Origin: Escherichia coli
Lineage (GTDB): Bacteria; Pseudomonadota; Gammaproteobacteria; Enterobacterales; Enterobacteriaceae
DNA length: 64,000 nucleotides
Direction: 5' to 3' (one strand)
Assembly (NCBI RefSeq): GCF_046105845.1
Contig: NZ_CP151004.1
Position numbers and translations under genes: made by a program. The notes under the pieces are model-generated. The model was not told where the DNA came from, ran no database searches, and was given only the letters and a program-made list of their open reading frames with translations. Positions 15,325 through 15,420 of this stretch are shown one piece after another. Every line of letters begins with the position of its first letter. Within the stretch, counting starts at the first letter, position 1.

Positions 15325-15420
15325 TGACGTCGTGCCCGGATGGCGTATTGCAATCCGGGCCTGGAATCCAGGCCGAATAAGAGAAACGCCCTCCGGCGTC
15401 ATGTGGTAACAGGCATAGGT

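Follow-up and report, generated by a model that had tools for sequence, protein, structure and literature searches.

Genes and features of the garR-garK locus

We analyzed the 96-nt spacer between garR and garK (15325-15420) in Escherichia coli, taking the whole spacer as our subject; all positions are those of the window, the 64,000-nt stretch of contig NZ_CP151004.1 in which it lies. On the + strand, garP (12284-13618), garL (13634-14404), garR (ending at 15324), garK (15421-16566), and rnpB (16599-16975) follow one another. We are confident that the spacer is a decayed pair of repetitive extragenic palindromic (REP) sequences, an atypical, single-copy bacterial interspersed mosaic element (BIME). 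Our best explanation, to which we give a probability of roughly 55%, is that this doublet acts as a barrier within the operon. In E. coli MG1655, the spacer lies at 3,271,771-3,271,866. The features of the spacer and its borders are listed here.

15322-15324, + strand: garR stop codon TAA; the outer stem begins at its final base
15324-15332, + strand: left arm of the outer stem, ATGACGTCG, pairing with 15394-15402; also the left copy of a direct repeat, CGT(C/T)(G/A)TG
15333-15364, - strand: REP1, inverted; on the + strand its head lies 3′ and reads CCTGG where CCTAC is expected; contains hairpin H1
15358-15374, + strand: center hairpin GGCCUGG-AAU-CCAGGCC, made of the two REP heads paired over the 3-nt linker (pairing probability P = 0.98)
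15368-15400, + strand: REP2, y-like, with a shortened upper stem; head CCAGG in place of GTAGG; lower stem decayed (GCCGAAT/CTCCGGC)
15375-15385, + strand: purine-rich stretch GAAUAAGAGAA, mostly unpaired in the minimum-free-energy (MFE) prediction and conserved in Escherichia and Salmonella
15386-15399, + strand: H3, a small alternative hairpin, ACGCC-CUCC-GGCGU (-7 kcal/mol); on the - strand, a weak terminator-like stem
15394-15402, + strand: right arm of the outer stem, CGGCGUCAU
15408-15414, + strand: AACAGGC, the likely garK Shine-Dalgarno region
15421-15423, + strand: true garK start codon ATG, as annotated in K-12 (b3124) and by the Prokaryotic Genome Annotation Pipeline (PGAP)

We also collected the garK locus from 80 Enterobacteriaceae species and extracted the spacers; garR lay directly upstream of garK in all of them. 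At 78 of the 80 loci, rnpB was found 3′ of garK on the same strand, ~33 nt past the garK stop, and the other two contigs were truncated. In the window, an in-frame ATG at 15340, with the frame open into garK, extends the garK open reading frame by 27 codons, but the idea that GarK begins there with 27 extra N-terminal residues is almost certainly wrong. Both the K-12 and PGAP annotations place the start at 15421, and the ATG of the MKIV... sequence, after the conserved AACAGGC, is the GarK start in 80 of 80 species. Spacer length ranged from 53 to 194 nt and was often not a multiple of three, the 95-nt spacer of E. albertii amounts to a frameshift that puts the upstream ATG out of frame with garK, and the terminator-type spacers described below differ in length as well as sequence. 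A reading made earlier from the sequence alone (the sequence-only reading) had rejected the extension, rightly so in light of the common MKIV start, the variable spacer lengths, and the E. albertii spacer; garK starts at 15421, and this annotation question is settled. AACAGGC itself was invariant or nearly so in the BIME-type spacers, had a close match in most terminator-type spacers, and was missing from several outlying genera. No sigma-70 promoter for garK was predicted within the spacer.

Inverted repeats and predicted fold of the spacer

The first inverted repeat, CCCGGAT (15335-15341)-N11-ATCCGGG (15353-15359), is exact, as the sequence-only reading had it, and extends to GCCCGGATGGC/GCAATCCGGGC, with 11-nt arms that are 91% complementary. 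As RNA, the corresponding H1 hairpin (15334-15360) has a predicted free energy of -17.2 kcal/mol. The second repeat is also real, but its gap had been miscounted as AT; the sequence reads GCCTGGA-A-TCCAGGC, and the full repeat is GGCCTGG-AAU-CCAGGCC (15358-15374, 7 bp, -12.1 kcal/mol). Rather than being adjacent, as had been proposed, the two repeats overlap by 1-3 bases (G15358-C15360) and therefore cannot both be fully formed at once. A flanking complementary pair had been described as well: its arms ATGACGTCG (15324-15332) and CGGCGTCAT (15394-15402) do pair, with 8 of 9 pairs plus one G.T (89% complementary), but the terminal GTG and ATG that had been included are unpaired. Within Escherichia, T-to-C changes on both flanks convert two outer-stem G.U pairs to G-C.

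Hairpins this strong rarely arise by chance. Of 1000 dinucleotide-shuffled spacers, 14 had a 27-nt hairpin at least matching the first, 5 had a 17-nt one at least matching the second, and 1 had both; for the fold of the whole spacer, z was -2.36, with 5 of 200 shuffles as good. The MFE predicted for 15316-15430 was -40.2 kcal/mol, and the ensemble was dominated by a long hairpin resembling that of a REP doublet forming hairpin (REPIN), whose stem joins REP1's left arm to REP2's right arm (helices with P ~0.8) and whose tip is the center hairpin. The ~18 bp of this long hairpin are spread over four helices, with 8x8-nt internal loops between them. The arrangement of two hairpins inside a flanking stem, as drawn in the sequence-only reading, reaches -33.2 kcal/mol and is thus not the predicted equilibrium fold. 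REP1's own hairpin has P = 0.11 at equilibrium, and it would be the first to form during transcription.

Cleavage by RNase III or RNase E, in the long hairpin or in the purine-rich segment, could in principle yield separate garPLR and garK(-rnpB) messages, and a hairpin of ~18 bp in four helices with an unpaired GAAUAAGAGAA stretch between stems offers both kinds of target. We consider such a processing site improbable. The 8x8-nt internal loops break up the helices and make for a poor RNase III substrate, and RNase E prefers AU-rich sites, whereas the single-stranded stretch consists largely of purines and has just one U. Moreover, a search of 12000-19000 against Rfam 15 with E up to 10 matched no family in the spacer, the only match being rnpB (16599-16975), and garR and garK had no entries in the data sets searched. 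Control of garK translation, by alternative pairings that hide its Shine-Dalgarno sequence or start, is less probable again. Two minor helices would have this effect, one of 15398-15404 with the Shine-Dalgarno region at 15409-15414 (P = 0.15) and one of 15330-15336 with 15418-15424, which includes the AUG (P = 0.27), but these probabilities are low and the pairings are not kept in orthologues. Strong conservation toward the 3′ end of the spacer fits this explanation but is accounted for by the ribosome-binding site itself.

On the - strand, the complement of REP2 forms a weak terminator-like site from 15400 to 15375, reading GACGCCGGAGGGCGTT and then TCTCTTATTC.

The spacer as a decayed REP doublet

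REP identity was reached through orthologues first and then with a covariance model. The least decayed orthologous spacers read GTGCCCGGTGGCGCTTAGCTTACCGGGCCTAC-ATT-GTAGGCCGGATAAGTGAAACGCCATCCGGCGTT, which is two REPs head to head with canonical CTAC/GTAG feet. The Pseudocitrobacter spacer, with heads GCCTAC-ATT-GTAGGC, matched the phnD-phnE BIME of E. coli at 85% over 64 nt, and GTAG/CTAC heads are kept in Pseudocitrobacter, Lelliottia, and some Enterobacter orthologues. The hairpins noted in the sequence-only reading are real structure within the garPLRK(-rnpB) transcription unit, but it had been missed that they and the flanks make up one REP doublet.

Several comparisons support this assignment. 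First, we built a REP covariance model (R1) from ten other REPs, seven from the window, two from phnD-phnE, and the published y consensus, and searched with filters off; the training copies were recovered, and E-values are rough because calibration was shortened. R1 matched gar REP2 (15368-15399, + strand) at 18.4 bits with a roughly calibrated E of 0.0065, and gar REP1 (15332-15364, - strand) weakly, at 9.8 bits with E about 2 (2.1), so that by similarity to other copies the E. coli doublet is a marginal member of the family. Second, in Pseudocitrobacter, Lelliottia, and Enterobacter CC120223 (loci L008, L023, and L073), R1 matched both halves on opposite strands at 20.7-30.3 bits; where Pseudocitrobacter and Lelliottia scored ~28-30 bits, E. 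coli scored 10-18 bits. The terminator-type spacers gave no R1 matches. Third, the E. coli core (15332-15400) aligned with the non-orthologous, canonical phnD-phnE BIME at z = 9.8, with 0 of 2000 shuffles as good. Finally, the geometry, two units on opposite strands and 3 nt apart, is common to the E. coli element, its orthologues, and the phnD-phnE BIME. An independent gain of REP-like sequence by the canonical-headed orthologues is unlikely, because all of them have common flanks. A blastn-short comparison of the E. coli halves with the canonical REP consensus sequences in the window gave no match.

The E. coli copy departs from the canonical form in several respects. Its heads read CCAG (15368-15371) and CTGG (15361-15364) where GTAG and CTAC are expected, and the center hairpin exists because these mutated heads remain complementary to each other. 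REP1 (15334-15360) is an imperfect palindrome within the 20-50 nt range of REP stem-loops. The lower stem of REP2 retains 4-5 of 7 pairs in E. coli, with P = 0.00, and is intact in Kluyvera and C. amalonaticus S646. Of the mid-stem AA/GC bulge, REP2 keeps the AA (15379-15380, within GAATAAG) and has lost the opposing GC, which is also deleted in canonical-headed orthologues. Like other REPs, which are found chiefly where genes are in tandem or converge, the element is extragenic, lying between the stop of garR and the start of garK on the same strand. The REP family is multi-copy, with at least 8 units in the 64-kb window. In 5425 E. coli genomes, as in the window, the exact spacer variant is a single-copy sequence; because short, diverged REP matches are hidden at E-values against 28 Gb, this count is not evidence against REP identity.

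Compared with the known E. coli REPs and BIMEs (y, z1, and z2; BIME-1, BIME-2, and atypical), the gar element shares two ~32-nt imperfect palindromes in inverse, head-to-head orientation around a short linker, and the arms of its REP2 are still of the y type, GCCG(G/A)ATAAG on the left and TCCGGC on the right. It differs in its CCAG/CTGG heads and in the short upper and broken lower stem of REP2. REP1 is a GCCCGG-type unit, unlike z1 or z2, and a doublet with a 3-nt linker is neither BIME-1, which has a long L linker, nor BIME-2, which is a tandem z2-y array. The REP-associated transposase TnpA(REP) reportedly requires GTAG for cleavage, and the E. coli gar copy, having lost this motif, is presumably immobile.

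The flanks of the doublet, described above as stem arms, are better seen in less decayed orthologues as an 8-nt direct repeat, CGTTGTGC, which is present on both sides in Pseudocitrobacter and Enterobacter CC120223. In E. coli, the direct repeat flanking the BIME lies at 15326-15334 and 15396-15403 and reads CGTCGTG/CGTCATG. It resembles a target-site duplication, and REP transposition is not known to produce one.

Both gar REP heads (15360-15364 and 15368-15372) are now CCWGG sites of Dcm methylation. Two other REPs in the window (~52270 and ~56432) also have CCAGG for GTAGG, and this change may recur in E. coli REPs. R1 additionally matched a REP-like site outside its training set, at 45985-46020 on the + strand (19.4 bits, E = 0.0034).

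Two forms of the spacer in the Enterobacteriaceae

The orthologous spacers fall largely into two forms. BIME-type spacers were found in 32 species (31 by pattern and Salmonella by eye), including Escherichia, Salmonella, C. amalonaticus, Pseudocitrobacter, Lelliottia, and Kluyvera as well as Trabulsiella, Superficieibacter, Huaxiibacter, and the E. cloacae complex. These are ~96 nt long and can be aligned with the E. coli spacer over its full length; shorter versions with internal deletions (56-76 nt) are present in some Enterobacter species. Terminator-type spacers (56-131 nt) were found in 46 species, including Klebsiella, Raoultella, the C. freundii group, Kosakonia, Phytobacter, Leclercia, Silvania, Atlantibacter, Mangrovibacter, Siccibacter, Buttiauxella, and one Cedecea. 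They open with an A-rich run, which is followed by the stem GGGCGCG-N4-CGCGCCC and then by a tail rich in T. Pairing in the GC stem is 96.4%, 5 of its 8 pairs have changed on both sides, and its covariation score exceeded those of 500 of 500 shuffles and of all slid controls. In a consensus scan, terminator-like calls were made in Enterobacter soli and K. grimontii (loci L030 and L059).

Whichever form it took, every spacer contained a stable hairpin (80 of 80 species), the best-scoring single hairpin having -12 to -28 kcal/mol. In most species, this hairpin begins 0-10 nt past the garR stop; in the remaining species, the REP1 or GC-stem hairpin lies at +5 to +9, except in Entomohabitans (also +9 there). 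In the BIME-type alignment, the lower stems do not vary, and REP1 occurs in two variants that are not in register with each other. By per-sequence pairing probabilities, all BIME-type orthologues fold at -34 to -47 kcal/mol, some into the long hairpin and others into separate REP hairpins. The conserved property is a very stable structure beside the garR stop, not one fold.

The hairpin of the terminator-type spacers, as in Klebsiella, the C. freundii group, Kosakonia, and Leclercia, resembles the E. coli element in being a strong GC hairpin in a co-transcribed spacer and in occupying the same slot, 0-10 nt past the garR stop and ~30 nt before the garK start. The E. coli element differs in having no U-tract and in a sequence unrelated to GGGCGCG...CGCGCCC. 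In a neighbor-joining tree of garR plus garK, the two spacer types are interleaved. The terminator-like hairpin is probably ancestral, because the deepest branches carry that type, and the BIME type, whose flanks are common to all its members, appears to be of single origin and to have replaced it; this order of events is inferred from the tree and the alignments. In our best explanation, the BIME was fixed in the spacer before Escherichia, Salmonella, C. amalonaticus, Pseudocitrobacter, Lelliottia, Kluyvera, and the others diverged.

In Kosakonia and Phytobacter, spacers of 103-131 nt have a second, inserted hairpin, for example CTTCAGGCC-N7-GGCCTGAAG, between the terminator-like hairpin and the garK ribosome-binding site (loci L020, L028, L035, L038, L041-L044, L051, L054, L055, and L057).

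Conservation of the spacer

Between the window and four other Escherichia species-level genomes, spacer identity was 0.94-0.98, compared to 0.60-0.70 at the fourfold-degenerate sites of garR plus garK, 0.65-0.88 at third codon positions, and 0.65-0.86 in the rnpB-yhaC spacer (binomial P = 1e-11 to 1e-13). Against Salmonella arizonae, the corresponding values were 0.76-0.77 for the spacer and 0.46 for the fourfold sites. This conservation is not confined to the stems but extends to the loops and to the decayed REP2. Within E. coli, 5350 of 5425 genomes have the identical spacer, but the first 96 nt of garK are equally invariant (5387 genomes), and conservation at this level is therefore uninformative on selection.

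These comparisons bear on a simple alternative, namely that the spacer is a neutral relic, an old BIME decaying without a role whose hairpins are left over from its palindromic nature. The losses recounted above, of the GTAG heads, of the REP2 stem, and of model score (~28-30 to 10-18 bits), all look like decay, and some Enterobacter spacers are internally deleted (56-76 nt), with no single fold conserved. A spacer that is 94-98% identical where fourfold sites are 60-70% identical, and better conserved than the rnpB-yhaC spacer, is nevertheless under purifying selection, and a strong hairpin stands beside the garR stop in all 80 species, whichever element provides it. We therefore regard the relic as quite unlikely.

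Third-position identity to other Escherichia was 0.65-0.70 in garK and 0.72-0.84 in garR (15421-16566 compared with 12421-15324), and 0.76-0.88 in garP in the three comparisons where garP aligned, so that divergence steps up across the spacer, from garP/garR to garK. Among 5426 E. coli genomes, one (CAVP773; locus L086, NZ_CM176349.1, 1416-2571) carries an IS5-like insertion sequence, ISEc35, in the right arm of REP1. The insertion corresponds to 15353-15361 of the window, has ATCCGGGCC on both sides, and splits garR from garK-rnpB.

A proposed barrier within the gar operon

We judge that the spacer is very probably functional as an intercistronic RNA structure. In the explanation we prefer, it would be transcribed within the garPLRK(-rnpB) message and fold into a compound stem-loop of about -40 kcal/mol, either the long REPIN-like hairpin capped by the center hairpin or, co-transcriptionally, the REP1 hairpin first. 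This structure would reach from 0-9 nt past the garR stop to ~20 nt before the garK start. It would shield the garPLR part of the message from 3′-to-5′ decay and allow only part of transcription, or of the mRNA population, to continue into garK, so that the garP, garL, and garR messages would exceed that of garK. In other Enterobacteriaceae, the same job would be done by the intrinsic-terminator-like hairpin that the BIME replaced. For the specific mechanism, barrier or attenuator, and for its direction (garPLR > garK), we rely on the behavior of such elements elsewhere and would put the chances slightly short of even.

Two lines of evidence point to the barrier. First, other genera carry a terminator-like hairpin at the same spot, which makes an intra-operon barrier the simplest reading. 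Second, REPs between tandem genes have been reported to stabilize the upstream message and attenuate downstream transcription, genome-wide data show upstream-biased expression of tandem genes separated by REPs, and REP325, between yjdM and yjdN, is proposed to act as a partial terminator and upstream stabilizer (bioRxiv 10.64898/2026.03.23.713779). The gar element is like REP325 in being a REP between two co-transcribed tandem genes, and it is the REP325 model that we extend to it; REP325, however, is a multi-unit canonical array with experimental support, whereas the gar element is a decayed doublet known from its sequence. Attenuation, one of two roles offered by the sequence-only reading, thus holds up as a reasonable class, both because similar elements are reported to attenuate and because of the terminator-like hairpin in other genera. 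In the expression data of the same study, DESeq2 base means are 660 for garL, 830 for garR, and 527 for garK (bioRxiv 10.64898/2026.03.23.713779), which per nucleotide is a step down of about 2-fold at garK and a weak hint in the expected direction.

A number of observations weigh against this explanation. The base means come from uninduced cells and were not length-normalized by the authors, and garP is lower than garL. No terminator-like site was called on the + strand of 15325-15420, the tails 3′ of the hairpins being CTGGAATCCA and GAATAAGAG; because neither contains a U-tract, the E. coli spacer hairpins are not an intrinsic terminator. No single secondary structure is kept across orthologues, and the near-invariance of loop and internal-loop bases in Escherichia is not explained by a generic hairpin function. 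In the study of REP325, REPs showed no general effect on mRNA half-life, and effects were weaker for less canonical REPs, of which the gar copy is one (bioRxiv 10.64898/2026.03.23.713779). garR and garK had no entries in the 3′-end and operon data sets searched, and nothing useful was found in the literature and supplements on 3′ ends, operon maps, or mutations of the spacer.

The position of the hairpin allows another role, compatible with the barrier: by analogy, a REP close to the garR stop may stall the ribosome, leading to tagging by transfer-messenger RNA (tmRNA) and less GarR. Stop-proximal REPs reportedly cause ribosome stalling and tmRNA tagging, in work from 2015 by Liang, Rudd, and Deutscher. 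The REP1 stem starts 9 nt past TAA (15322-15324 to G15334), the outer stem starts at the stop itself, and a short distance from stop to hairpin is kept in 80 species. As summarized in PMC12306157, a REP hairpin <16 nt past a stop codon defines stop-codon-proximal regulation, and at 9 nt the gar hairpin resembles the REPs in that class. Such a brake on garR translation is nonetheless unlikely, as there is no obvious rationale for lowering GarR relative to GarK, and the expression hint, at the RNA level only, points the opposite way.

BIMEs have also been reported to bind gyrase, DNA polymerase I (Pol I), and integration host factor (IHF) and to be targets of insertion sequences, and the one genome with ISEc35 in the right arm of REP1 fits a role of that kind, at the level of DNA rather than RNA. 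The linker, however, is only 3 nt, with no L-type linker bearing an IHF site, the element is a single decayed doublet rather than a tandem BIME-2 array, and the terminator-like hairpin at the same spot in other genera suggests an RNA-level role. We consider a DNA-level function highly improbable.

Returning to the barrier, the BIME may have gone further and been domesticated, first taking over the ancestral attenuator role and then becoming a sequence-specific regulatory RNA in Escherichia. The conservation of nearly every base, the change of two G.U pairs to G-C, and the retention of the head-to-head hairpin despite loss of GTAG fit this idea, which we offer as an outside chance. If the idea is true, the RNA could switch from one hairpin, that of REP1 or the long one, to the other, or bind a protein or small RNA, and might in this way control read-through toward garK and the essential rnpB.

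On its own, the gar element is routine, one more degenerate REP pair in E. coli and a known kind of element. A REP doublet and a terminator-like hairpin in the same intercistronic slot of sister genera, by contrast, make a clean natural example that supports the view of REPs as tunable terminators or stabilizers inside operons, and the shared slot invites a swap of the E. coli BIME and the Klebsiella hairpin. Loss of GTAG combined with near-protein-coding-level conservation in Escherichia also argues that decayed REPs missed by consensus searches can be functional.

Other observations

A sigma-54-like TGGC...TTGC at 15341-15352 was considered by eye and rejected because its spacing is wrong. 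A promoter-like site, GTGACA-17-TATACT (16563-16591), overlaps the garK stop. The unpaired stretch holds four A-R-N triplets in a row (AAU AAG AGA AAC, 15376-15387), possibly by chance. Just 5′ of the garK ribosome-binding site lies a mini-open reading frame of three codons, ATG-TGG-TAA (15401-15409), which may likewise be a chance occurrence; its counterpart in many other genera is GTG-CAG-TAA.

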